A DNA stretch of 64,000 nt from Acidobacteriota bacterium (GTDB lineage Bacteria; Acidobacteriota; Terriglobia; Terriglobales; SCQP01). This document shows positions 3,591 through 63,423 of this stretch, piece by piece. Numbering within the stretch: position 1 is the first letter of the stretch; every line of letters begins with the position of its first letter. The DNA lies in the NCBI GenBank assembly GCA_021818955.1, contig JAKASR010000004.1, forward strand, positions 100,365-164,364. Direction: 5' to 3'. The translations under genes and the position numbers were made by a program. The notes under the pieces were generated by a model. That model worked only from the letters and a program-made list of their open reading frames with translations. It made no database searches and was not told the origin of the DNA.

Positions 3591-3815
3591 AATGCGGCAC
3601 GGCCGCTTTTACTTTTAGGCGCTGACGCTTTCGCTATGGTCCGGCCGAAACCGGACGCATGGCGAATACTCATGGATACCGAAAGTTTATTGTCGTTAAT
3701 AGGCGCGGGACCTAACCGGAACCCCGCGCGAAAGCGGCCTGCGAGCATGGCTAGAGGCAATTTCCTCGAAATTGCCCATGATGAAAACTACTGCCCGACT
3801 CGGCCGTTAACGCTT
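3591..3815 (+). repeat. hairpin-rich intergenic repeat of about 222 nt, copy 1
   Basis: Near-identical to 32884-33105 (about 17 mismatches by hand alignment) and to the reverse complement of 22899-23150. Contains hairpins GTCCGG-ccgaaa-CCGGAC, GCGCGGG-13nt-CCCGCGC and GGCAATTTC-ctc-GAAATTGCC. Starts 10 nt after the GH2 stop. Confidence 0.85.
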
Positions 3816-9538: not shown

Positions 9539-10201
9539 ATGTGTGGACGATTTACCCTTACCCAGCCCGGCGAAGCCGTGGCGGCGCACTTCCGACTGGA
9601 GCCGGCGCCGGTGCTGCGCGCGCGCTTCAACATCGCGCCGATGCAGCCGGTGCTGGCGGTGCGGGCGCGCCCGGAGGGTGGACGCGAGGCCGCCCACTTC
9701 CGCTGGGGGCTGATTCCCGCCTGGGCGCGCCCGCCGGTAAAGTCTTCGACCCCGCTGATTAATGCCCGCGCCGAAGGGTTGGCGTCCAAGCCGTCCTTTC
9801 GCGAAGCCTGGCGCCGCCGCCGCTGCCTGGTGCCCGCCGACGGTTTTTATGAATGGGCGGAAGAGCAAGGCCGGCGGCGCTGCTGGCAGATCCGCCGCCG
9901 CGACCAGGGCATTTTCGCCATCGCCGGCTTATGGGAACCCTGGCCGGCGGCGCTGCCGCCAGTGGCGAATCCGCCGGCGGCGGAGGGCCCGAAGGAAAGC
10001 TGCACCCTGATTACGACCACGCCTAACGCGTTGGTGGCGCCGGTGCATAACCGCATGCCGGCGGTGCTGGCGCCGGAGGCTTACGATCGCTGGCTCAACG
10101 CCGCCAGCGGCGCTTCCGCGCTCGAACGCCTACTGCATCCGTGGCCGGCAGACGATTGGGAACGCGTGCCGGTGGAGGCGCCGCTGCCGAAAGAAAGCTA
10201 A
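9539..10201 (+). CDS. SOS response-associated peptidase (SRAP/YedK family), abasic-site processing protein
   Basis: MCGRF N-terminus (catalytic Cys2), FNIAP, INARAE, CLVPADGFYEW, HNRMPAVL. All are SRAP family hallmarks. Confidence 0.9.
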   Translation: MCGRFTLTQPGEAVAAHFRLEPAPVLRARFNIAPMQPVLAVRARPEGGREAAHFRWGLIPAWARPPVKSSTPLINARAEGLASKPSFREAWRRRRCLVPADGFYEWAEEQGRRRCWQIRRRDQGIFAIAGLWEPWPAALPPVANPPAAEGPKESCTLITTTPNALVAPVHNRMPAVLAPEAYDRWLNAASGASALERLLHPWPADDWERVPVEAPLPKES

Positions 10202-10310
10202 CAGCACTCAGCGCAAGCGCGCGAAAAGCAGTCGGAATTTTCCTGGCGCCCCGGCCCGCAAACCCCAAAGCTGACGGCCGGCGGCTGAAGCAAGTTGACA
10301 GGCGGGCAAC

Positions 10311-10363
10311 TTTAAAAAAATAAGCTCCCGCGGCGCCGTGTGGCAACTCGGCGCCGCGGGAGC
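10311..10363 (-). terminator. rho-independent terminator downstream of pal
   Basis: Perfect 15-bp GC-rich stem (10324-10338 pairs with 10349-10363) with a 10-nt loop. On the minus strand it is followed by TTATTTTTTTAAA (10311-10323). Lies 21 nt after the pal stop. Confidence 0.85.
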
Positions 10364-10383
10364 GGGAGGGGATAGCGAACGGG

Positions 10384-11148
10384 CTACTGGCTGGAGCCGC
10401 CGCCGGAGGTCTGCATGACAATATGCGCGCGCCGGTTTTGCTGGTAGCATTCCGACGTGGCCTCCGTGCAGAAAGGCCGTTCCTTGCCGTAGCTGATGGT
10501 GCGGATGCGGCTGGCATCCACGCCCAACGCCACCAGGTATTTGCGGGCGGCATTGGCACGGCGGTCGCCCAAGCCCATGTTGTATTCGGCGCTGCCGCGG
10601 GCATCGCAATGACCCTCGATGATGATATTCACTTCGGGGTTTTGCTTCAGCCAATCGGCGTCTCCCTCGAGCGCCTGTTGCGCATCGCCACGAATATTCC
10701 ACTTATCGAAATCGAAGAAAGCATCGTGAATATTCTGCTGGAAGCGTTCACTCAGCGGCACGACCGTGGGCGCCGGCGGGGGCGGGGGCGGCGGCGGTTG
10801 CGTGACGGTGACGCGCACGCTGGAATCCGCCGTCTTCCCATCGGAGTTGGTGGCCACCAGCTCGTAATCGGTGGAATCGGTGGGCGAAACCTGTTGCGAG
10901 CCGTTGAGGTCGACGCGCGCGCCGTTCAACGTCACTGACACCGCATTGGTCGAGGTCCAGGTAAGGGTGCTGCTCTGGCCGCGCTGGATAGCGGTGGGAT
11001 CGGCACTGATGCTGGCCGTCGGCAGTGGCGCTGCCGCCACAGGCGCCGGCGGCGGGGGCGGCGGCAGCTTTTTATGGCCGCAGCCGGTTAACCACAGCAA
11101 AAGAGGCAAACTGGCAGCAGCGGCCAGCAGCCGGTTACGTACTTGCAT
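10384..11148 (-). CDS. pal: peptidoglycan-associated lipoprotein Pal (OmpA family) with extra N-terminal beta-rich domain
   Basis: Start moved to ATG 11148, which has GGAGGA 8 nt upstream. Lipobox LLWLTG|C. OmpA-like domain FDFDKWNIRGDAQ...IIIEGHCDARGSAEYNMGLGDRRANAARKYLVALGV. Last gene of the tol cluster. Confidence 0.85.
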   Translation of the reverse strand: MQVRNRLLAAAASLPLLLWLTGCGHKKLPPPPPPAPVAAAPLPTASISADPTAIQRGQSSTLTWTSTNAVSVTLNGARVDLNGSQQVSPTDSTDYELVATNSDGKTADSSVRVTVTQPPPPPPPPAPTVVPLSERFQQNIHDAFFDFDKWNIRGDAQQALEGDADWLKQNPEVNIIIEGHCDARGSAEYNMGLGDRRANAARKYLVALGVDASRIRTISYGKERPFCTEATSECYQQNRRAHIVMQTSGGGSSQ

Positions 11149-11285
11149 GAGAATCATCCTCCATCGTGGGATCATGACCCACGGATTGTGAATGCACAAC
11201 TTAAGCCGTCGCGCCGGCCGGGCATCCGGCCGGAGCACGAAACGGCCATTGACCGCAGGAGCCGGTCAGCTCTATCGGGCGGCAA

Positions 11286-13536: not shown

Positions 13537-13953
13537 CTAGGGTTTATGCGAATAAGGCTGCGTCACCAAGCTGACCCGCTGTAAACCGCCCCGCTTAATC
13601 TCGTCCATGACCTGCGCCAGCATGCCCCAGGGCACGCGCTCATCGGCGCGCACATAAATGGTGTGCTTGCCCGCGGGCACCTGCTGCTTCAACAAGGCCG
13701 GCAAAGCATGAATATTGACCCGCTTGTCATTGACGTAAATATCGCCGCCCTGGGCCACGGTCACCACCAACCGCGGCTTCAATAGTTGCCGGGTATTGCG
13801 GGTGTGGGGAACGGTCACCGAGATGCCCGATTGGATGACCGGAGCGGTGATCATAAAAATCACCAGCAGCACCAGCACCACATCGACCAGGGGGGTGACA
13901 TTGATGTCGGCCAGCGCGGTTTGCGTGCGTCCATTGGGAAGGCTCCAGGCCAT
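13537..13953 (-). CDS. tolR: biopolymer transport protein TolR (ExbD/TolR family)
   Basis: ADINVTPLVDVVLVLLVIFMITAP TM motif and ExbD-type periplasmic domain. Lies 3 nt downstream of tolQ. Confidence 0.8.
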   Translation of the reverse strand: MAWSLPNGRTQTALADINVTPLVDVVLVLLVIFMITAPVIQSGISVTVPHTRNTRQLLKPRLVVTVAQGGDIYVNDKRVNIHALPALLKQQVPAGKHTIYVRADERVPWGMLAQVMDEIKRGGLQRVSLVTQPYSHKP

Positions 13954-13956
13954 AGC

Positions 13957-14661
13957 TCACCTCGGCCCGGGGCGGTAGCCGGCAGCAGCCTCTTCCACCA
14001 CGCCGGCTTCTTCCAGACGATTGACCAGTTCAAGCCCGAATTCATCGGTGGTGGCCGCCAGCACTTTCACCTGATTGGAGAGCGCGTTATAGGCAATCAG
14101 CGCCGGCACTGCCGCGAACAACCCGGCCGCGGTCGTCACCAGCGCTTCGGAAATACCGGGAGCGACGGCGCGCAAGGTGGCCGCGCCCTCGGCTCCCAGC
14201 CCGTGAAAAGCGTTGATGATGCCCCACACGGTGCCAAACAGGCCGATAAACGGGCTGGCACCGGCAATCGTGGCCAGCCACCCCAAGCGGTCTTCGAGCG
14301 CGGTGATCTGATCGGTGGTGGCGGCGCGCACAGCGCGTTCCAAGGCGGGAGCGCGTGCGCCGCCACGCTGGCGCGTTAATTCCTCGTAACCGGCTTCAAA
14401 CACTTCGACCAGCGGCGAAGGACGGAAGTTTTCCGACACGGCATGCATGTCGGGCAACCGGGCGGCTTTATGAAAGGCGCGCAGGAATTTCTGCGTTTGC
14501 CGGCGAACACGGCGAAACGCGCTCCATTTTTTCAAGATCAGAGCCCAGGAAAAAATCGAGAGCAGCAGCAAAATGGCCAATACGGTTTTGGCCACCGGTC
14601 CCGATTGGCTCAAGAACTCGGTAAAAGCCCCGGTATTCGGGGAGAAATTGGGAAACTGCAA
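13957..14661 (-). CDS. tolQ: Tol-Pal proton channel protein TolQ (MotA/TolQ/ExbB family)
   Basis: Three TM segments. Family core ...ATIAGASPFIGLFGTVWGIINAFHGL... and ...GISEALVTTAAGLFAAVPALIAYN. Confidence 0.85.
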   Translation of the reverse strand: MQFPNFSPNTGAFTEFLSQSGPVAKTVLAILLLLSIFSWALILKKWSAFRRVRRQTQKFLRAFHKAARLPDMHAVSENFRPSPLVEVFEAGYEELTRQRGGARAPALERAVRAATTDQITALEDRLGWLATIAGASPFIGLFGTVWGIINAFHGLGAEGAATLRAVAPGISEALVTTAAGLFAAVPALIAYNALSNQVKVLAATTDEFGLELVNRLEEAGVVEEAAAGYRPGPR

Positions 14662-22898: not shown

Positions 22899-23150
22899 AA
22901 GCGTTAACGGCCGAGTCGGACAGCAGTTTTCGTCATTGGCAATTTCGGAGAAATTGCCTCGAGCTATGCCCGCAGGCCGAAGCGCGGGGTTCCGGTTAGG
23001 TCCCGCGCCTATTAACGACGATACCAAGCAATTCCGCAGGAATTGCGCCCGGCAATGCCCGGCATCCATGAGCATTCGCCCTGCGTCCGGTTTCGGCCGG
23101 ACCTTTGCGAAAGCGTTAGCGCCTAAAAGTAAAAGCGGCCGAGCCGCATT
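22899..23150 (-). repeat. hairpin-rich intergenic repeat, copy 2 (inverted; carries a 40-nt replacement insert)
   Basis: The reverse complement aligns end to end with copies 1 and 3. Segment 23021-23060 replaces a 10-nt linker and adds the hairpin GCAATTCC-tgc-GGAATTGC. Sits between the convergent stops at 22884 and 23232. Confidence 0.85.
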
Positions 23151-23231
23151 CACCGCGGGAAGCGGAAGACCGCGCAATAGCCAAAGACATCAAAAGCTGT
23201 CCGACTCGGCGGTTAGGCGGTGAGCGGCGGA

Positions 23232-32591: not shown

Positions 32592-32777
32592 ATGAGCGAA
32601 TCGTTAATTGCGGCGCGCTGGGTGGGGGCGCTGCTGCTCGCCGCAGGTATTGGGCTTTATGCCGCCGGGTCGGCGATTGGCCCCGAAGCGCTGCATATTG
32701 TTCTCATGTTCGCCGGCGTTCTGCTGGGCGTGGCCGGCTTGCGCCGCATCTTCGATCCCAGCGGCTGCGGCACCTGA
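32592..32777 (+). CDS. hypothetical small membrane protein (61 aa, two predicted TM helices)
   Basis: MSESLIAARWVGALLLAAGIGLYAAGSAIGPEALHIVLMFAGVLLGVAGLRRIFDPSGCGT. Third-position GC looks similar to neighbouring genes. GGGGAG lies about 14 nt upstream. No family recognised. Confidence 0.4.
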   Translation: MSESLIAARWVGALLLAAGIGLYAAGSAIGPEALHIVLMFAGVLLGVAGLRRIFDPSGCGT

Positions 32778-32883: not shown

Positions 32884-33105
32884 GCGGCACGGCCGCTTTT
32901 ACTTTTAGGCGCTGACGCTTTCGCAAAGGTCCGGCCGAAACCGGACACATTGCGAATACTCATGGATGCCGAAAGTTTATTGTCGTGAATAGGCGCGGAA
33001 TCTAACAGGAACCCCGCGCGAACCCGGCCTGCGCGCATGGTTTGAGGCAATTTCTTCGAAATTGCCAATGACGAAAACTACTGCCCGACTCGGCCGTTAA
33101 CGCTT
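32884..33105 (+). repeat. hairpin-rich intergenic repeat of about 222 nt, copy 3
   Basis: About 17 mismatches to copy 1 over 222 nt by hand alignment. Same four hairpins. The loop of the last hairpin is ttc instead of ctc. Ends 128 nt before the M28 peptidase ATG. Confidence 0.85.
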
Positions 33106-35447: not shown

Positions 35448-37106
35448 TTACGGCCCCAGCAACGGCGAAACCCGCAGCCGAAGCGAGGAAAACAGCGTCC
35501 AATCAGCCCGGCGGTAGCGCACCGCCGCCTCCTGCCAGGCGATTTCGGCCTGCAAGAGGGCGCTTTCGGCGTCGCTCAACTGCGATTGTTGCTGTAAATA
35601 TTCAAATAACGTGGTGGTGCCGAGAATATATTTCTTGTGCGCCGCGTCCACATTCTTTTGCGCCAGGTCGCGGGCCAGGCGTGCTTCCTTAATTTCGGAG
35701 CCGGCCATGCGCAGCTCGATATCGGCCAGCCGGACTTGTTGCGCCACCGATTGTTGCTGGTCGCGCATGACCGCGCGATCGCGGCTGCGGGCGATGAGCG
35801 CGTTAGCCAGCGAGGCGGCGGCGGCGCTATTGCGGAGCGGCAGCGTGAGCTGCAATGAAAATCCATATGTGGGGGTCTGAAACCGGAACATTTGTCCCAG
35901 GGCATTGCTCAGGCCGCCGGGTTGAATCATTGCGCCGGCGGTGCTAAGGGCATCGCCACCCAGGCCATTGGAGCCGTATAACCCGGTTAGGTCCAACTCC
36001 GGCTGCAGGTTGTTGCGGTCGGCGGTTTCGCCCAGAGCATCCATCAGCAGTTGGCGGCGGGCGGCGCGCAGTGCGGGACGATGGCGCAAAGCGCGGTCCA
36101 GGGCCGTATCCAGCGGCTGGCGGGGCGAATCTCCCGGCTGGGGTTTGGGCTGGTCTTCCAACGTAATCGGCAAATTGCGCAACTTCGGAATCAAATCGGC
36201 GCCGATCAGCCGGCGCAGGCTATCGAGCGCTTCGCGGTAACTGGCCTGCGCTTCGAGCAACGCCAGGCGGGTGCGCGCCACCTGCGCCTCCGACTGGTAG
36301 ATATCCATCGGCGGCAACGCGCCCAGCTTCAGCGAGCGCTGGTCGTGTTGGTACGAACGCTGGGCCAGCTTGAGCGCCGCCTGCTGTACTTGAATCGCCT
36401 GGCGCGCGCCCGCCGCGATCCAGTACGACTGGGCGGCGGAAACCAGCAGATCGGCAATTTGTTCCTGGCTCTGCTCGCTCGCAATCAAGACTTCGCCGTG
36501 GGCTTGGAGCAGGGGAATTTTGTAGAGCAGGTTGCCGCGATTGCGCAGCAGCGGTTCGGTCAGTGAGAGCGACAGCCCGGTCGAGATGGAGGGATTGAAG
36601 AGATTGTAGAGGCTGTTAGCGGAATAACGGTTGCCGTTGAAGCCGGCGCTGAACGTCTGCCCGGAAGGAAGCCTCTCGCTAAAATTGATGCTGGAATTCT
36701 GCGACAGGCTGTCGAGCGTGTTCGCTCCTCCCAACTGCGAGTATTGCGGCGCGAGTTGGCGTGTGCTGCCGAAATCGAAGGCCAATTGCGGATCGTAGGG
36801 CGCGCGGGCGGCAAGCGCCTGGGTGGCCGTCTGGCTGACGTTAAGCCGGGCCAATTGCACCTGCGGATCGTTGCGCAACACCAGGAGCAGAAATTGCCGC
36901 AGGCTGAGCTGTAATCCGTGCGGGCCAACGTGCGCCCGCAGGCCGGCCACCGGCCTGAGCCGCAGCGGCGGCAGTTGAAAATGCCGCCCCAGATAACTGG
37001 GCAGCCGCTGCCCCCATGCCGCCAGGCTTAAGCCGAGCGTCAATCCGAGCGCCAGCCGGCCGCGGCGTGCTCCGGGGCTATTGATCTGCCTTTCTTTGTG
37101 GCTCAC
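35448..37106 (-). CDS. TolC-family outer membrane efflux protein
   Basis: Signal peptide. Two OEP-type repeats with long coiled helices (e.g. YDPQLAFDF, LLEAQASYREALDSLRRL, LQAEIAWQEAAVRYRRA). Last gene of the efflux operon. Confidence 0.85.
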   Translation of the reverse strand: MSHKERQINSPGARRGRLALGLTLGLSLAAWGQRLPSYLGRHFQLPPLRLRPVAGLRAHVGPHGLQLSLRQFLLLVLRNDPQVQLARLNVSQTATQALAARAPYDPQLAFDFGSTRQLAPQYSQLGGANTLDSLSQNSSINFSERLPSGQTFSAGFNGNRYSANSLYNLFNPSISTGLSLSLTEPLLRNRGNLLYKIPLLQAHGEVLIASEQSQEQIADLLVSAAQSYWIAAGARQAIQVQQAALKLAQRSYQHDQRSLKLGALPPMDIYQSEAQVARTRLALLEAQASYREALDSLRRLIGADLIPKLRNLPITLEDQPKPQPGDSPRQPLDTALDRALRHRPALRAARRQLLMDALGETADRNNLQPELDLTGLYGSNGLGGDALSTAGAMIQPGGLSNALGQMFRFQTPTYGFSLQLTLPLRNSAAAASLANALIARSRDRAVMRDQQQSVAQQVRLADIELRMAGSEIKEARLARDLAQKNVDAAHKKYILGTTTLFEYLQQQSQLSDAESALLQAEIAWQEAAVRYRRADWTLFSSLRLRVSPLLGP

Positions 37107-37157
37107 CTTGTTCCTCGTCTTTTGCTTCTGCCGTCTTGCCTGGTTTGATCTGCTCTC

Positions 37158-38399
37158 TCACTCATAGCGCAGCGCCTCGATCGGATCGATGCGCGCCGCC
37201 TGGCGCGCGGGATACAAACCGAAGATCACGCCCACCGCCGCGGAAACGCCGAAGGCGACCAGGATCGAAGGCAGAGATACGATCGTCTGCCAACCCGCCG
37301 ACCAGGCAATCAGGCGCGAAAGCAGCAGTCCGAAAAGCACGCCCATGAGCCCGCCGGAAAAAGATATGAGCAGCGACTCCACCAGAAACTGGCGCATAAT
37401 GTCGCCCCGGCGCGCGCCGATAGCCCGCCGCACTCCGATTTCGCGGGTGCGTTCCATCACGGTGGCAAGCACGATATTCATAATCCCGATGCCGCCGACC
37501 AGCAGGGAGATTGCGGCAATGGCGACCATCACCAGGGTAAAAATCCGTTGTGTGCGCTCTTGCGCCGCCAGCAGCGCGGCGGGAGCGACCACATGATAAT
37601 CATGCGTCCCATGATGGCTGGCGGAAAGGATAGCCTGGGCGACCGCCGCGGCGCGGAGCACGTTGGCGGCAGGCGCCAAGGCGATATCGACTCCATCAAG
37701 CGGATCTTTAAAGCTGAAATCGGCGTCCCAAATGCGGTGCTCAAAAGCGGTAAAGGGAATATAGATCGCGTGGCCGCCGCCGGCGCTGTTAGCGCCCGAG
37801 CCCAGCACGCCGATGACGCGGAACCAGACGTCATTGATCTTGACCCAGCGGCCCAGGGCGTTGCGATAGCCCAGTAGCCGCACCTTGATCGCCTGGCCGA
37901 GCACGCACACGGCGGTGCCGGCCGCTTCGTCGGTGGCGTCGAAAAAGCGCCCCTGGTCCACGTTCAAGTCGTGAATGCGGGCATAGACGGGATACACGCC
38001 ATAGACTTCCGGCCAAGCGCCTTGCGGGCGGGGCAGCAGCGATACCGGCCGCATCTCGCGCCGTGGCGTAATCCAGCGCACTCCCGGAACGTTGGCACCC
38101 AGCAGCCGCAAGTCACTCTGGTTCAGCCCGTGCGAGGTCTGGCGTCGCTGTTGCAATTGTTGCTGGCTGGTGGCGGGAATGGAGTCGATCAGCAGATTGC
38201 GGACTCCGAGTTTCTCAATCAGGCGCAGCGATTGCGCCCGCGCGCCGGCGCCGATCGAGAGCATCGCGATGACCGCGCCCACGCCGAAGATGATGCCCAG
38301 CGCGGTCAAAATCGTGCGCACCTTTTGTGCGCGCAAATTCTGCCACGCCAGGCCCAGGTCGGCGATGATCCGCTTCCAGTCCCGCCAGGCTGCGGGCAT
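37158..38399 (-). CDS. MacB/FtsX-type ABC transporter permease with no ATPase domain
   Basis: Start moved to ATG 38399 (MPAAWRDWKRIIADLGLAWQNLRAQKVRTILTALGIIFGVGAVIAMLSIG). A periplasmic domain of about 230 aa is followed by the FtsX 3-TM domain ending GLYPARQAARIDPIEALRYE. The 115-codon upstream extension in the track overlaps the preceding gene. Confidence 0.85.
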   Translation of the reverse strand: MPAAWRDWKRIIADLGLAWQNLRAQKVRTILTALGIIFGVGAVIAMLSIGAGARAQSLRLIEKLGVRNLLIDSIPATSQQQLQQRRQTSHGLNQSDLRLLGANVPGVRWITPRREMRPVSLLPRPQGAWPEVYGVYPVYARIHDLNVDQGRFFDATDEAAGTAVCVLGQAIKVRLLGYRNALGRWVKINDVWFRVIGVLGSGANSAGGGHAIYIPFTAFEHRIWDADFSFKDPLDGVDIALAPAANVLRAAAVAQAILSASHHGTHDYHVVAPAALLAAQERTQRIFTLVMVAIAAISLLVGGIGIMNIVLATVMERTREIGVRRAIGARRGDIMRQFLVESLLISFSGGLMGVLFGLLLSRLIAWSAGWQTIVSLPSILVAFGVSAAVGVIFGLYPARQAARIDPIEALRYE

Positions 38400-38449
38400 G
38401 GCTTCCGGCCGCCGCGAGGCCGGGCCAGGGTGCTGGAGCGTCCCCGGAC

Positions 38450-39757
38450 TCACGATTTTTCCTCTTTGCCGTTCACGGCCGTCTGCGGGTTGATCAAGGC
38501 GATCGTGTCGCCGGCTTTCACTCCCGCCAGCGCTACTCGCGACTCGCTGCGCAGCAGCACTTTCACCGGCTGGCGCACGAAACGGCCCTGGCGGCGCACA
38601 TAGACGTATGCGGCGCCGCTGGCGCCGAAGACCGCTTCCGTCGGCGCCCAGAGCGCGTGCGGCAGATTCTTTACGGTAATGCGCGCCTCGGCGCTCATGC
38701 CGGGGCGCAGCCCGGAAACTTTGTTTAACAGCGCTAGAGTGCAATGAAAACGGCGGTTCCAGGGCCGCCCGGTGACGCCGCCGACGTTGATCACGCGGGC
38801 GGCGATGCTGCGTCCGGGCAACGCGATTACGCTGATCACCGCCTGCTCGCCGGCCGCCAGGTAGGCGCGATTGGCCTCCCCCATGGTGGCGTTCAGGCGG
38901 AGCTGGGAAAGATCGGGAATCTCCGCCACCAGGTTGCCGGGATAGACCTGGTCGCCCAGGTGGTAGCGTGGAAAGGTCATGCCCGGGTAATAAAAATACT
39001 GGTTGTGCGGGTTCGGCTGAATCGAAAAATAGCCGGCGCGATGGGCGCGCAATTCCATGGCGCCGATATTGTGGCGCGCCAGGTCCACTTTTAATTGCGC
39101 TTCATGCTCGGCGGCTTCCTGGATGCGAATCTGCGCCAGCCCGCTTTGCCGCTCGCCGGCCAAATTGCTTTTCAGCTGGCGCAACTGCGCTTGCGCCGCG
39201 CTCAGCTTCAGCAGGTTGGCGCGGGCATCCAGCGCGGCCAGAATGGGATTGCGGCGCACCTCGAGCTCGGCCAATCGCACCTGATCGCGGGCGTCGAGTA
39301 GCGCATAGCTGTCTTCCTCCGCCTGCGCCAGCATGGCGTCGCGAGCGGAGGCGATATTGGCCTGCGCCTGCGCCACATCGTTTTCCGCTTGCAGCAATTG
39401 GTATTGTTGCTGGGCGGCGCTAAACCGCGCCACCACTTCGCCCGGTTGCACCCGCGTGCCATCCGGCAATAAATAGCTGAGATACAATTGCCCGCCGCCA
39501 ATGCCTGGCGCGGCCAATAGATCGGGATTCTGGCCGCCCAGCGTGCCATGCGCGTATAGCACCACTCGCACAGCGCCGTAACCGATGCGAAAGACCGGCA
39601 GTGAAACCTTGGCCGCAGGCTGCAAGCGCCGCCAGACCCCTACGCTCAGCGCCGCCGCCGCGAGCAGCCCGGCCACCCCCCATAACCATCTCCGCCGCAA
39701 GGGAGAAGCGTGCCGCGGCGCCACCGGCGCTAGCGCGGGCTGGGGCTGCGCGCTCAT
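38450..39757 (-). CDS. HlyD-family periplasmic adaptor (membrane fusion protein), paralog 3
   Basis: N-terminal TM, a barrel-sandwich/lipoyl-like segment (GEVVARF), a long coiled-coil hairpin and a beta-barrel C-terminus. ATGA overlap with the upstream paralog. Confidence 0.8.
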   Translation of the reverse strand: MSAQPQPALAPVAPRHASPLRRRWLWGVAGLLAAAALSVGVWRRLQPAAKVSLPVFRIGYGAVRVVLYAHGTLGGQNPDLLAAPGIGGGQLYLSYLLPDGTRVQPGEVVARFSAAQQQYQLLQAENDVAQAQANIASARDAMLAQAEEDSYALLDARDQVRLAELEVRRNPILAALDARANLLKLSAAQAQLRQLKSNLAGERQSGLAQIRIQEAAEHEAQLKVDLARHNIGAMELRAHRAGYFSIQPNPHNQYFYYPGMTFPRYHLGDQVYPGNLVAEIPDLSQLRLNATMGEANRAYLAAGEQAVISVIALPGRSIAARVINVGGVTGRPWNRRFHCTLALLNKVSGLRPGMSAEARITVKNLPHALWAPTEAVFGASGAAYVYVRRQGRFVRQPVKVLLRSESRVALAGVKAGDTIALINPQTAVNGKEEKS

Positions 39758-41061
39758 AGCCGCGCTCCGCCCGAAATTTGGGCTCCGGGCGTTGGCGCCG
39801 CGCCCTTCTCGTGGTCCGGGGTTTTCGCGCCCGGACGTTTCAGCGCCACGGTTTGCCCGGCCGTCAATCCTTCAATGGCAATTTCATTGGGATTGCGCCC
39901 GACCACCCGGATCGGGTGCGGACGAAAACCGTTTCCCTGGCGTAGATACACCACCGTCTTCCCATCCACGATAAACAGCGCCTGGGCGGGAAGTATCAAG
40001 GCGTGCGGCAGCCGGCGGGTGATGATTTCCAGATCGCCGTTCATCTGGGGACGCAGCCGTGGATCGGGATGCTCAAGCGTGGCGTAAGCCAGAAAATAGC
40101 GCGGTGGCGGCCAGCCCTGGCCGAAGACCACTTGCGTCAACGGCGAAATGGCGTACAGCCGGCCATCGAATTGGCGGTCGGGCAGCGCATTGACATGCAT
40201 CTGCACCGTTTGGCCGACCTGCAATTGCCCGCGCTCGGCTTGCATCAGGTTGCCGCGCATCACCAACGTCGAAAGCACGGGAATTTCCGCAATGATCGCC
40301 CCGGAAAACACCTGATCGCCCACCTGGTAGGTGTGCGGGTTGGTAAATGAGGCGCGATTGTTGCTCATGTAAGTGATGATTCCGGAAACCGGAGCGCGCA
40401 GCACGGTTTGGGCATAGATCGCCTGCCGGCGCTGCAACTTGGCTTCCGCCAGCATCCGCGCCTCCCGGTGCCGGGTAATGCTCGCCGCGGCCGATTGCTG
40501 GTGCTGGCGAATGGTGGCCTCTTCGACTTTCAGCGCGGCTTGGGCGGTGTGCAGCGCCAGCCGGGCTTCGGCGCCGTCAATGAAGCTGAGAATGGCTTGG
40601 CGGGCAGCTTCGAGGCGCGCCTCCTGCACCGCGACCTGGGCCTGGGCCAGCGCCAGCCGGTCCTGATCCGCCTGCAGCTTGGCATTGGCGTGGCTCTGCC
40701 GCAACTGGGCGGTGGCGCTATGCACTTCGGCCTGCTGCTCGCGCATCTGCTCCTGCAGTTCCGAGCTGTCGAAACGGATCACCACCTGGCCGGTGCGCAC
40801 CGGCTTGCCCGCCGGCGCCAGCCACAGAATGTGCAGGTCCTGGGCGTTGCGGGGCGCGCGCAGGTACGCCGCCTTTTTCACCCACAGCTTGCCTTCGCAG
40901 CGCACGTATTCCAGCAGTTCGCCCCGCCGCACCACCGCGGTGGGCAGCGCCGCGCCGTTCCGGTCGCCATAGCGCCGCCAACCCCACCATCCGCCGCCCC
41001 CGAGCGCCGCCGCGAGCACGGGAATGGCGGCCCGTTTCCAGGCTGTCCCCTGGACTTTCAT
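39754..41061 (-). CDS. HlyD-family periplasmic adaptor (membrane fusion protein), paralog 2
   Basis: Same architecture and the same length (435 aa) as paralog 3: TM anchor, GQVVIRFD, coiled coil, APVSGIITYM, beta-barrel. Confidence 0.8.
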   Translation of the reverse strand: MKVQGTAWKRAAIPVLAAALGGGGWWGWRRYGDRNGAALPTAVVRRGELLEYVRCEGKLWVKKAAYLRAPRNAQDLHILWLAPAGKPVRTGQVVIRFDSSELQEQMREQQAEVHSATAQLRQSHANAKLQADQDRLALAQAQVAVQEARLEAARQAILSFIDGAEARLALHTAQAALKVEEATIRQHQQSAAASITRHREARMLAEAKLQRRQAIYAQTVLRAPVSGIITYMSNNRASFTNPHTYQVGDQVFSGAIIAEIPVLSTLVMRGNLMQAERGQLQVGQTVQMHVNALPDRQFDGRLYAISPLTQVVFGQGWPPPRYFLAYATLEHPDPRLRPQMNGDLEIITRRLPHALILPAQALFIVDGKTVVYLRQGNGFRPHPIRVVGRNPNEIAIEGLTAGQTVALKRPGAKTPDHEKGAAPTPGAQISGGARL

Positions 41062-41089
41062 GCTTCGCCTCGCCTGCCGCGCCCGAAAT

Positions 41090-42316
41090 TCATTGCCCGC
41101 CTTCCGGCGCTAACACCGGGGTAGCGTCATTGACTCCCCTGAGCAGCACGCCGTGATGGTCGAAGCCGGCCACTTGCACCGGCAGGCGTTGCGCCTGCCC
41201 CTGGCGCCAGATGCGTATATACGCCGCGCCATTCGTTGCGTAGTACACCGTATCGCGCGGCGCCAGCCATCCCGATCTCGGCGGCAGATGCAGGGTAATT
41301 TCGCAGTTCAGATCGGGCAGCAGCCGCGGGTCGCGGCTCAGCAATTTGAAATTGGCGCTAAAATTGCGGATCGGGTTATCCGCCGAGCCCGTGGCCACCG
41401 GGCTGAAACTCAGCAACTGCGCGGGAAAATGCACCCCCGGATAGGCGTCCAGTTGGACGATTCCCGGCGTACCCTCCGGCAGTGCGGAATAATCCGCTTC
41501 GCTTATTAGCACCCGCACCCGCATGCTGTCGCGATTGAAAACTTCGAGCAGCTTCATGCCGTGCCAGACCTGGGTCCCCGGCGCCAGGTTTCCAATCCAC
41601 GGTGGCGCGGTATAAGCCAGCATCCCGTCCATGGGCGAGCGCACCACCAATTTACGGCTGTCCGATTCCGCCCGCTGCCAATCCAGCTTCTGGCGGTCGC
41701 GCTGCAACTCCAGCACGCGCAGGCTGGCTTCGGCCTTGGCGGTTTCCAACGGATTGGAACGCTTCAAACTGGCTACGTGGGCGCGGGCGTCGGCCCACTC
41801 GACCTGATCTTCTTCCACCTGGATTTGGCTCAGTATCGGCGCCTTGCGCAACTCCAGCGCCGCCCTCGCCTCGTCCGCCTCCGCCTGCTCCAACTGCTGC
41901 GCCCGCACCGCCGCATCGGCATCGTTTTGCGCCCGCTGCTTGCGTACTTGCGCCGCCAGGTCCATGTATTGGGCATAGGCGCCGCGCGCCCTCACTTCCA
42001 GATCGGTTTGATCGAAGGCGACCAGTAAATCGCCTTTTTTGACGCGTGCGCCGTTGGGGGCCAATTGCGTGATGGTGAGTTGGGGAGAAAATTGCGCCAG
42101 CGCCGGCGCCAGAATGGGCGTTTCCCGCGTCGGCACGATCACCCCGCTGGCGCGGATCACGCGCCGCACCGTTCCCCGGCGAAGATGGATGATCCTTCCC
42201 GGTGCGGTGCGGGCTGAAACCTTGCTGGAAAAGCGCCGGCAGCCGGATATGACCAGGCTTGACGCCAACCCCAACAGGCCTAAAATTAAACCTCGACTGT
42301 ACAGCTTAGAATTCAA
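41090..42316 (-). CDS. HlyD-family periplasmic adaptor, lipoprotein-type, paralog 1
   Basis: Lipobox LVISG|C. GDLLVAFDQ, coiled coil, RSPMDGMLAY, beta-barrel. First gene of the operon. Confidence 0.8.
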   Translation of the reverse strand: MNSKLYSRGLILGLLGLASSLVISGCRRFSSKVSARTAPGRIIHLRRGTVRRVIRASGVIVPTRETPILAPALAQFSPQLTITQLAPNGARVKKGDLLVAFDQTDLEVRARGAYAQYMDLAAQVRKQRAQNDADAAVRAQQLEQAEADEARAALELRKAPILSQIQVEEDQVEWADARAHVASLKRSNPLETAKAEASLRVLELQRDRQKLDWQRAESDSRKLVVRSPMDGMLAYTAPPWIGNLAPGTQVWHGMKLLEVFNRDSMRVRVLISEADYSALPEGTPGIVQLDAYPGVHFPAQLLSFSPVATGSADNPIRNFSANFKLLSRDPRLLPDLNCEITLHLPPRSGWLAPRDTVYYATNGAAYIRIWRQGQAQRLPVQVAGFDHHGVLLRGVNDATPVLAPEGGQ

Positions 42317-61633: not shown

Positions 61634-62065
61634 TCAATGCCCGGACATCATCTTCGGCGTCAGCATGCCAACCTTAATCGTGGGGTCCACGCCCTTGGCG
61701 ATGTCGATCGCCCGCGCCACCGCGGCGAACGGGATATCGTTGTTGGCGGTCACGAACATGACTTTTTCGGCGCGCGTCCGGTAGATTCCTTCGAGTTGGC
61801 TACCCAGCGTGTTCCAGGTCACCGACGTCTGGTTGATCTTGAGCTGGTTGCCATCCAGCACCGACACCACGATGGTGGCGGTATTGGTCGGCGTGTTTTT
61901 GCTTTTATGCTTATTCGGCTGCGGCACCAGCGTATGCAAGCCATGCGGTTTGAGCGGCGTGATGACCATGAAAATGATGATCAGCACCAGCAGCACGTCA
62001 ATCAACGGCGTGACGTTGATATCCGAACTGGGCCCGCCCTTGCTGCCTCCAACTGTCATTGCCAT
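61634..62065 (-). CDS. exbD: biopolymer transport protein ExbD/TolR
   Basis: SDINVTPLIDVLLVLIIIFMVITP TM motif and an ExbD periplasmic domain. Confidence 0.85.
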   Translation of the reverse strand: MAMTVGGSKGGPSSDINVTPLIDVLLVLIIIFMVITPLKPHGLHTLVPQPNKHKSKNTPTNTATIVVSVLDGNQLKINQTSVTWNTLGSQLEGIYRTRAEKVMFVTANNDIPFAAVARAIDIAKGVDPTIKVGMLTPKMMSGH

Positions 62066-62098
62066 ATCGAAACTCCTTCGCGCCGGGCGCGGTACGGA

Positions 62099-62539
<441 letters not shown>

Positions 62540-62697
62540 AAATTTCCGACTCCTACACTGAAGCCGGCGCAACCGGCTTCAGCCTTGACGCCTCCCCGCC
62601 GGTCCCATCCCGCTAAGCGGGACGGGACTGGCGGGCTGGAGGACAGGCAACATTCGCGCGCGACCGGCGCCGCCCAGCGGCCACCGGCGCAGCGATA

Positions 62698-63423
62698 CTA
62701 CTTGCGCACCGCGGCCCGGCCGGAGCGCTTCAGGAAGTAATCGATCAGCTCGCTGGAGGAGTTGTCCATCTCGATGTCGAACGCCTCCACCTTGCCGGTG
62801 AAATAGTTGTAAGCCCACACGGCCGGCACGGCGACCAGCAGGCCGAATGCGGTGGTGACCAGCGCTTCGGAAATGCCGCCCGCGACCGCCGCAATACCGG
62901 TGGTGTTCGAGGTGCTGATGCTGGCGAAGGCGTGAATAATGCCCAGCACCGTGCCGAACAGTCCCACGAAGGGGGCGGTGGCGCCGATGGTGGCCAGCGA
63001 GCCCAAGCCGCGCTTCAACTCGGCGTGCTCAATCGCCTCGGCGCGGTCGAGCGCGCGCCGCGAAGCCTCAATTTCATCGCCCGGAATCTCGCTGGAGACT
63101 TCGTGCGCCTGAAACTCCGCCAAGCCGGCCGTCACCACCTTCGCCAGGTGGCTCTTCTTATTGCGCTCGGCAATTTTGATGGCTTCGTCCACCCGCCCGT
63201 TTTTCAGCGCGCCGGCCACCGCGGGAGCGAACTCGCGCGACTGCCGGCGGGCGGCGGAATAAACCAGCCAGCGGTCCACCATCACGCCGATGGAAATCAC
63301 CGACATGATGAAGAGCAACACCACCACCGCCTTGGCCGGGACGCCCATCTGGTTCCACAGCGCGACCGGATCGCCCAAGTTGGCGCTGTTGTTGGCCTGC
63401 AGTAAAAAGTAAATCGCGTACAT
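62698..63423 (-). CDS. exbB: MotA/TolQ/ExbB proton channel family protein
   Basis: Three TM segments. Core LATIGATAPFVGLFGTVLGIIHAF and GISEALVTTAFGLLVAVPAVWAYN. Confidence 0.88.
   Translation of the reverse strand: MYAIYFLLQANNSANLGDPVALWNQMGVPAKAVVVLLFIMSVISIGVMVDRWLVYSAARRQSREFAPAVAGALKNGRVDEAIKIAERNKKSHLAKVVTAGLAEFQAHEVSSEIPGDEIEASRRALDRAEAIEHAELKRGLGSLATIGATAPFVGLFGTVLGIIHAFASISTSNTTGIAAVAGGISEALVTTAFGLLVAVPAVWAYNYFTGKVEAFDIEMDNSSSELIDYFLKRSGRAAVRK

Follow-up and report, generated by a model that had tools for sequence, protein, structure and literature searches.

Mosaic repeats that lie between genes and fold into hairpins form a known class of bacterial DNA, exemplified by the REP sequences and BIMEs of Escherichia coli and its relatives and by the BOX elements of Streptococcus pneumoniae. 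Here we describe a repeat of this class, found in three copies in a 64-kb stretch of a Terriglobales genome (hereafter the window; coordinates given for it are positions in the whole stretch). The repeat consists of a head hairpin followed by a T-run, hairpins designated H2, H3 and H4, an optional hairpin V and a constant tail. On balance we favour the view that it is lineage-restricted, high-copy, non-coding mosaic DNA of the REP/BIME/BOX kind, mobile but non-autonomous, because its copies are scattered between genes and are absent from the same sites in relatives. By sequence or by defining marks it falls neither within REP/BIME nor within BOX, and it is no classical MITE (a miniature transposable element with inverted repeats), no known RNA family and no peptide gene. 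It is a previously undescribed family within the known class, set apart from the hairpins of class-3 TnpA_Y1 transposases by the description of the latter only.

Like REP sequences and BIMEs, whose enzyme is RAYT (TnpA-REP), the repeat is intergenic, present in many copies, made of GC-rich hairpins, often located behind stop codons, and free of terminal inverted repeats (TIRs) and target-site duplications (TSDs). It is also a mosaic in which tandem hairpins vary in number around fixed linkers (V from zero to at least three times as a 32-nt unit, H4 from zero to three times as a 30-nt unit, and the head up to three times). However, its unit measures about 220 nt and holds five different hairpins, none of whose stems carries a GTAG or CGTC tetranucleotide at its foot (11 nt from H4, the reverse strand of some copies reads GTAG, and that of others GCAG). 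Neither the alternating arrangement of inverted REPs nor a RAYT/TnpA_Y1 gene was found, the latter in the window or the fetched loci. With BOX elements, organized as boxA - boxB x n - boxC, the repeat shares constant ends, an internal module repeated a variable number of times, a length of 100-350 nt, a non-coding and intergenic nature, strong folding, and a mobilising enzyme that is unknown. It differs from them in having no sequence relation to BOX, in belonging to another phylum, and in that BOX ends are partly complementary whereas its own head and tail are not; moreover, two different internal modules vary here, and the head repeats as well.

Closer to the present host, atypical hairpins flank the class-3 TnpA_Y1 genes of Acidobacteria and number about 600 in Solibacter (PMC6006769), and Acidobacteria also carry a distinct group of tyrosine transposases (PMC3733652). 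The class-3 hairpins, described in Acidobacteria and Planctomycetes by Quentin et al. (2018; PMC6006769), are REP-like, depart from the GTAG rule and reach hundreds of copies; our repeat comes from the same phylum and resembles them in being REP-like, high-copy and at odds with the GTAG rule. According to their description, each is a single hairpin that has a 5' CnGA foot, a feature that is not consistent in our repeat when compared with that description, and no class-3 gene was found near any copy. Elements derived from IS200/IS605 (PATE) likewise have distinct ends with subterminal hairpins (in our case the head at the 5' end and a CGGCC...GGCCG-closed hairpin at the 3' end) and lack TIRs and TSDs; unlike them, the repeat has no conserved 4-5 nt target adjoining its left end. 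The Correia elements of Neisseria (CREE/NEMIS) and the ERIC/IRU elements of enterobacteria are comparable as repeats of 100-160 nt that are co-transcribed with their neighbours and bring terminators, promoters or RNase sites. However, TIRs of 26 bp and a duplicated TA mark the Correia elements, ERIC consists of one long imperfect palindrome, and neither is modular in the way seen here. The Rfam motifs Acido-1 and Acido-Lenti-1 are structured and non-coding, and also come from Acidobacteria, but the repeat matches neither, even at E <= 10.

Anatomy and spread of the repeat

An earlier note on this DNA, made from the letters alone, had described three near-identical copies, the second inverted, and our analysis bears this out, positions included. 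Copy 1 (3594..3815, + strand; nhmmer 273.6 bits, head model 112.8 bits) and copy 3 (32884..33105, +; nhmmer 277.7 bits) are full elements without V, and copy 2 (22899..23147, -; nhmmer 257.5 bits) is a full element with one V. Their pairwise identity is 90-93%. Copies 1 and 3 align without a gap over 222 nt at 92% identity, and the 17-18 or so mismatches that we count agree with the approximately 17 reported before; copy 2 is inverted relative to the others and differs from them by a 30-nt insertion, which is itself the V hairpin, and a 3-nt deletion. Chance cannot produce so long and close a match in 64 kb. An extra 15-20 nt upstream of the head (CCGCTTCnnGCGGnAAT) is common to copies 2 and 3 and to a copy found outside the window, at locus L041.

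The raw sequences and an alignment of 13 copies resolve the element into six modules. The first is the head, GCGGC-N-CGGCCGC TTTTACTTTT AGGCGCTGACGC, which leads into H2 (TTCGCAAAG GTCCGG ccgaaa CCGGAC n CTTTGCGAA). The head hairpin, GCGGC-N-CG-GCCGC with the adjoining TTTTACTTTT, had been overlooked before and is terminator-like in all three window copies; in copy 1 it reads GCGGC-ACG-GCCGC and then TTTTACTTTT (3594..3616, +), with a hairpin energy of -8.3 kcal/mol. The GTCCGG hairpin listed in the earlier note is present, but it is no more than the tip of a stem that can reach 15 bp, TTCGCAAAG-GTCCGG...CCGGAC-n-CTTTGCGAA. A linker, TACTCATGGmTGCCG, forms the second module, and the optional hairpin V (GCAATTCC tgc GGAATTGC), which occurs zero, one, two or at least three times, forms the third. 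The fourth comprises TGTCGTTAATA and H3 (GCGCGGG...CCCGCGC), and the fifth CGGCCTGCG followed by H4 (GGCAATTTC nnc GAAATTGCC). The sixth is the constant tail, GACGAAAACTnCTGyCCGACTCGGCCGTTAACGCTT(yTGG), which ends in ...CCGACTCGGCCGTTAACGCTT.

In copy 1, all on the + strand, folding and alignment place H2 (TTCGC TATG GTCCGG ccgaaa CCGGAC g CATG GCGAA) at 3630..3666, inverted-repeat search and folding place H3 (GCGCGGG-13 nt-CCCGCGC) at 3703..3729, folding places H4 (GGCAATTTC-ctc-GAAATTGCC) at 3756..3776, and alignment places the tail (GATGAAAACTACTGCCCGACTCGGCCGTTAACGCTT) at 3780..3815. Copy 2, on the - strand, has its head at 23125-23147, H2 at 23075-23111, V (GCAATTCC-tgc-GGAATTGC; alignment and folding) at 23028..23046, H3 at 22982-23008, H4 at 22938-22958 and tail at 22899-22934. 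The corresponding positions in copy 3 (+) are 32884-32906 for the head, 32920-32956 for H2, 32993-33019 for H3, 33046-33066 for H4 and 33070-33105 for the tail. The four stem-loops listed in the earlier note thus recur in every window copy, and the last of them, H4, does combine an invariant 9-bp stem with a 3-nt loop reading ctc, tcc or ttc. A closing helix between the two ends, ACGGCCG/CGGCCGT, had also been thought possible; it is not supported, as most copies carry T rather than A and the first hairpin already takes up the 5' CGGCCG.

Across the family, lengths range from 189 to 344 nt. V and H4 are paralogous, and the compensated pair beside the loop is C:G in V versus T:A in H4. Modules also stand alone: we found solo heads (L057 4380-4467 and 12670-12757; L056 15746-15833), a solo tail module (L056 12647-12743) and mini-elements made only of head and tail (L057 8503-8582; L053). 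A composite array at L056 9859-10358 runs from a head with V, through a full copy lacking H4, to an H3-H4-tail segment. Three heads lie in tandem at L056 19273-19648 (19.2-19.6 kb), where the flank repeats 12 nt of the head (ACGCAGGGCGAA), and V is repeated at least three times up to the contig end at L058 14-203. Composite arrays point to unequal recombination or to insertion into other copies. At L037 109-310 (-), which comes from the same metagenome-assembled genome (MAG) as L041, an H4-like hairpin and a diverged tail are followed, about 100 nt on, by a head start fused to V-like hairpins; this arrangement may represent a second sub-family.

Further copies were sought in several collections. 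A genome-collection scan with the palindromic H4 pattern listed mostly chance matches (for example in Chryseobacterium), and among the matches listed were one true full copy (L041, in an Acidobacteria MAG) and fragments (L037). A metagenome scan with a 19-nt tail pattern returned the deletion derivative L053, a 23-nt tail piece (L054) and two coding chance matches, and the family was not found in viral contigs, phage records or plasmid records. A protein search with two translated frames that are open in the window copies retrieved open reading frames (ORFs) annotated across copies elsewhere; there were seven, and the contigs of six gave loci L056-L061 from three assemblies. A nucleotide profile (nhmmer) then identified about 25 further full or partial copies in four to five other Terriglobales assemblies; in L056-L058 they occur roughly once every 3-5 kb. 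When 1.84 billion representative proteins were searched exhaustively, only about six genuine ORF artefacts of the repeat emerged, so the family is rare and lineage-restricted.

These artefacts deserve listing. The public-MAG 'hypothetical proteins' P0001-P0007, P0130, P0131 and P0133, of 53-162 aa, are the repeat translated in various frames, and in P0006 a glyoxalase-family ORF reads directly into the head of a copy. Two strong matches from the representative-protein search, P0128 and P0129, were rejected as unrelated repeat proteins.

Mean core identity is 89.7% within assemblies and 88.8% between them (L041 excluded). Sub-types, with V or without H4, are common to different assemblies, with identities as high as 96% between L056_10k and L059 and 94% between window copy 2 and L058; the fetched repeat loci share no genes with the window. 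Such shared sub-types could reflect either close relatives that inherited them or a family exchanged between hosts. Short-read (Logan) contigs of the source organism (L055, L070) end at window positions 3619, where copy 1 has run for 26 nt, and 22926, within the copy-2 tail. Assemblies of the source genome are thus broken by the repeat, as expected of a high-copy repeat.

Insertion sites and mobility

All copies are intergenic, in spacers that are convergent, co-directional or divergent. In the window, the head of copy 1 begins 14 nt past the stop codon of a GH2 gene (3580). Copy 2 is flanked by two convergent genes, for BamD (stop 22884) and for a SPOR-domain protein (stop 23232). Copy 3 has on one side a conserved membrane ORF of 61 aa (stop 32777) and on the other the promoter region of an M28 peptidase gene (33180).

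BamD homologues place the window in Terriglobales, and relatives were retrieved through them (L062, 75% identical; L064, 72%; L066, 60%). L062 and L064 are syntenic with the window from EPSP synthase through BamD, SPOR, Band_7 and NfeD on to the succinate dehydrogenase genes, and in L064 synteny extends to the M28 peptidase gene. The BamD-SPOR spacer, 347 nt long in the window, is 84 nt long and element-free in L064; the L064 spacer between the small ORF and the peptidase gene is likewise free of the element. L062 has no copy in 21 kb, so its copy-2 site is empty; this locus ends inside the small ORF, short of the copy-3 site. Around that site the window and L064 are alike, with a hairpin after the small ORF and a promoter-like TTGCnn-17-CATACT before the peptidase gene, and the extra DNA of the window, about 340 nt, falls exactly between the two. 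L066 holds one more, diverged copy at a different site. As syntenic sites are element-free in relatives, the element must have been gained or lost as a unit.

The small ORF next to copy 3 (32592-32777, +) encodes a hydrophobic protein of 61 aa (MSESLIAARWVGALLLAAGIG...) that is kept in L064 and L062, and a conserved GC hairpin and an A-run lie 3' of it. The 163-aa ORF given from 32286 in the ORF listing is an over-extension of it.

The ends of the element were examined for marks of transposition, and the earlier impression that there are no clear TIRs and no TSD is upheld. In the window, a 45-nt solo tail fragment (23171..23215, +; E 7.7e-4) sits inverted directly upstream of the copy-2 head and is 79% complementary to the copy-2 tail. 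Only L041 shares this arrangement, which makes 2 of 19 heads tested, the other 17 being at background; an inverted tail was therefore rejected as a TIR, and the fragment beside copy 2 is a neighbouring remnant rather than a general terminal inverted repeat. A similarity to the inverted tail in the GH2 C-terminus upstream of copy 1 was also rejected as chance, the region coding for a typical GH2 end. The sole sequence near both ends is the 6-nt palindrome CGGCCG. In 30-nt flanks of 14 copies, among which there was no near-identical empty site for comparison, the longest direct repeats are 4-6 nt and lie away from the junctions. A split flanking hairpin was not above chance, and the flank 5' of GCGGC is heterogeneous (AAAT, GAAT, TCTA, TCTT, CCGA, ACTG, CCAT and AGGG, among others), with no conserved target.

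How could such a repeat multiply? An enzyme encoded elsewhere in the genome would copy and move it, recognising the folded hairpins on single-stranded DNA. We propose an HUH/Y1-type enzyme, of the RAYT or class-3 TnpA type, because the element has distinct ends with subterminal hairpins and neither TIR nor TSD; a DDE transposase is less likely, since there is no TIR, no target duplication and no conserved flanking target. By analogy with the acidobacterial hairpins, class-3 TnpA_Y1 would be the most plausible kind of partner. Copies on one contig tend to share a strand (5 of 5 sites in L056, 3 of 3 in L058 and 2 of 2 in L060), in L056 whatever the direction of the genes, which would fit targeting of a replication strand. 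The number of modules may change through slippage or unequal recombination between similar hairpins. Where a copy lies behind a gene and runs in the same direction, its head hairpin and U-run would probably stop or stabilise the transcript as a by-product, and the frequent position of the head opposite a stop codon would thereby be explained. Mobilisation by an enzyme that acts in trans and recognises hairpins of single-stranded DNA, the head having a terminator effect on the side, is plausible but unproven. In its most specific form, which we put forward as a doubtful conjecture, the proposal is a REP-like system confined to one Terriglobales lineage, in which a domesticated class-3 HUH/Y1 enzyme copies the five-hairpin unit of about 220 nt via single-stranded DNA, modules are added or removed singly, and the head serves the host as a portable terminator. 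Such a system would be a persistent, vertically inherited partnership of repeat and enzyme comparable to REPIN-RAYT, with a much larger mosaic substrate.

Several observations weigh against the mobile-repeat interpretation. The window contains no mobilising enzyme, its genes being ordinary chromosomal genes (the earlier note had seen no transposase, and protein checks agree), and none adjoins a copy in the fetched loci; nor is the 5' CnGA foot of class-3 hairpins evident in the repeat. The extra DNA of about 340 nt at the copy-3 site exceeds the conserved core and has GAAATA on both sides, and with no near-identical pair of filled and empty sites the exact ends of the element and the absence of a TSD are not proven. 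The preference of the head for gene ends is marginal (about p = 0.04, from a hand count), and GC skew is too small to resolve any bias towards one replication strand. Finally, the contrast between stem and other columns (reported below) draws on non-independent copies, so that its p-value claims too much, and on a structure derived from the same sequences.

The repeat family is well defined, and it comes from the Acidobacteriota, a phylum in which hardly any small mobile DNA has been described. Breaks in assemblies of Terriglobales MAGs, and false 'hypothetical protein' calls in them, are explained by it, with at least seven such ORFs in public protein sets, and it offers a candidate substrate for class-3 HUH enzymes, which are poorly understood. 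Should the head terminate transcription, the family would add to the cases in which mobile DNA spreads regulatory signals. The family opens no new category.

Terminator-like head, folding and coding potential

Does the host keep the repeat as an RNA module acting in cis? Under this alternative, it would be a portable intrinsic terminator and stabiliser of 3' untranslated regions, or a set of exonuclease-blocking hairpins, spread by any means and retained mainly at transcript ends. We consider this rather unlikely as the main explanation, though it is compatible with a mobile repeat. The head of every copy is a GC-rich hairpin directly before a U-run (T-run), and a terminator consensus scan is positive in all three window copies. 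About 12 of the 16 copies that could be assessed have their head towards the 3' end of a co-oriented gene (hand count from gene tables); the head lies 0-110 nt past the stop in most copies and within 0-14 nt in four. Stems are conserved, and two of the solo heads (those of L057) have been retained behind genes. Yet a terminating head would leave the 150-250 nt behind it untranscribed, and these are equally conserved. Four of the 16 copies (L056 at 10.3 kb and 15.8 kb, L057 at 5.8 kb, and L066) are divergent or antisense to both neighbours. The head hairpin is also weak, with 5 bp and a 3-nt loop (z = -1.5 for the -8.3 kcal/mol given above), and the gene beside copy 3 already has its own conserved hairpin. 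Two causes would fit the orientation bias: a preference for the ends of genes, or selection of the head for its terminator-like signal.

The hairpins themselves are constrained. Folding exceeds that of shuffled sequence on both the element strand (z = -3.7) and the opposite strand (z = -3.4), and 97.7% of stem cells are paired in the seven helices of the full element. In 13 full copies, non-consensus bases make up 1.6% of stem columns and 10.5% of other columns, in keeping with the earlier remark that differences fall mainly outside the stems. No variation is seen in the loop of H2, CCGAAA, or in several unpaired stretches; CsrA-type GGA motifs were considered and rejected, the CATGGATG site reading GGC in many copies and not being conserved. 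The earlier note had also proposed a covariance model built from the copies. Searched against the loci, a model of the head module found 21 solid heads in 243 kb. Covariation is nil in the full element: the stems are nearly invariant and none of its 43 pairs has changed on both sides. Of the 20 pairs of the head module (20 copies), three, all in the central part of H2, show changes on both sides; 17 of 500 shuffles reach this count, and slid controls give 0-2. Two of these changes are the pairing-preserving ones of copy 1 (TATG/CATG; A:U to U:G and A:U to U:A), and L066 shows G:C to C:G. This H2 covariation gives weak support to the structure. Hairpins matter to whatever makes or keeps new copies, and the molecule concerned is RNA or single-stranded DNA.

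Such constraint could also be that of genes for a trans-acting structured RNA (a regulatory small RNA, a protein sponge or a ribozyme), with functional hairpins and conserved loops. The folding scores, the invariant loop and unpaired stretches and the few compensatory changes speak for such genes, and an optional hairpin at a fixed point recalls the variable arms of RNAs. We nevertheless find this improbable. Rfam 15 gave no match at gathering score over the whole window, and searches of copy 1, copy 2 and L057 at E <= 10 returned nothing or chance matches only, with no hit to Acido-1 or Acido-Lenti-1, the two motifs that the earlier note had suggested. No window copy has a promoter-like site upstream, the two strands fold to the same degree, and G-U pair counts (2 vs 5) indicate neither strand. 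The element is missing from orthologous sites in relatives, full copies show no covarying pair, and modules are commonly truncated, solo or in tandem. In degenerate solo copies, stems are disrupted with no compensating change, as expected from decay after insertion. The suggestion of a structured RNA or a REP/MITE-like family stands as far as a multi-copy, non-coding, intergenic repeat built of hairpins and polymorphic in presence is concerned, and is not supported for a dedicated RNA gene or a classical MITE.

The MITE case, in which the repeat would be an internally deleted DDE transposon whose TIRs are short (CGGCCG at both ends) or decayed, has several points in its favour and still seems to us a poor prospect. 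The element is short, non-coding, multi-copy and polymorphic for insertion, CGGCCG occurs near both ends, and the mini-derivatives (L057 8503-8582 and L053) retain the ends only; to this may be added the inverted tails upstream of copy 2 and L041 and a possible GAAATA duplication around the extra DNA of the copy-3 site. However, CGGCCG is a palindrome of 6 nt rather than a terminal repeat, the inverted tail is missing at 17 of the 19 heads, no junction-adjacent direct repeat was found in the 14 copies, and no related transposase was found in the window, plasmids, phages or viral contigs.

An antisense small-protein family (...AISxKLP...SKSGRAA), already doubted in the earlier note, can be dismissed: the frame is open in the three window copies and gene callers annotate ORFs across copies elsewhere, but stops and frameshifts break it in L041 and L066, all frames carry stops in most of 14 copies, the annotated ORFs differ in strand and frame and run into the flanks, and the lengths of 189-344 nt do not differ by multiples of 3, as the indels do within the window.

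Other features of the window

Two paralogous sets of ExbB/ExbD (TonB-system) genes, at 13852-14169 and 61967-62889, account for repeat families D2 and D5, with 71-81% identity, and ExbB was confirmed at 62698-63423. In an efflux cluster on the - strand (35448-42316), HlyD-type membrane-fusion paralogues, three in a row, are accompanied by a MacB/FtsX permease and an outer-membrane factor. Direct repeats that are GC-rich and of low complexity (GGCGGCGG...; families D3 and D4) occupy 9938-11065, around a 284-aa ORF at 10384-11238; to judge from the synteny shared with L064, a TonB-like protein's Pro/Gly-rich region is probably what they encode.

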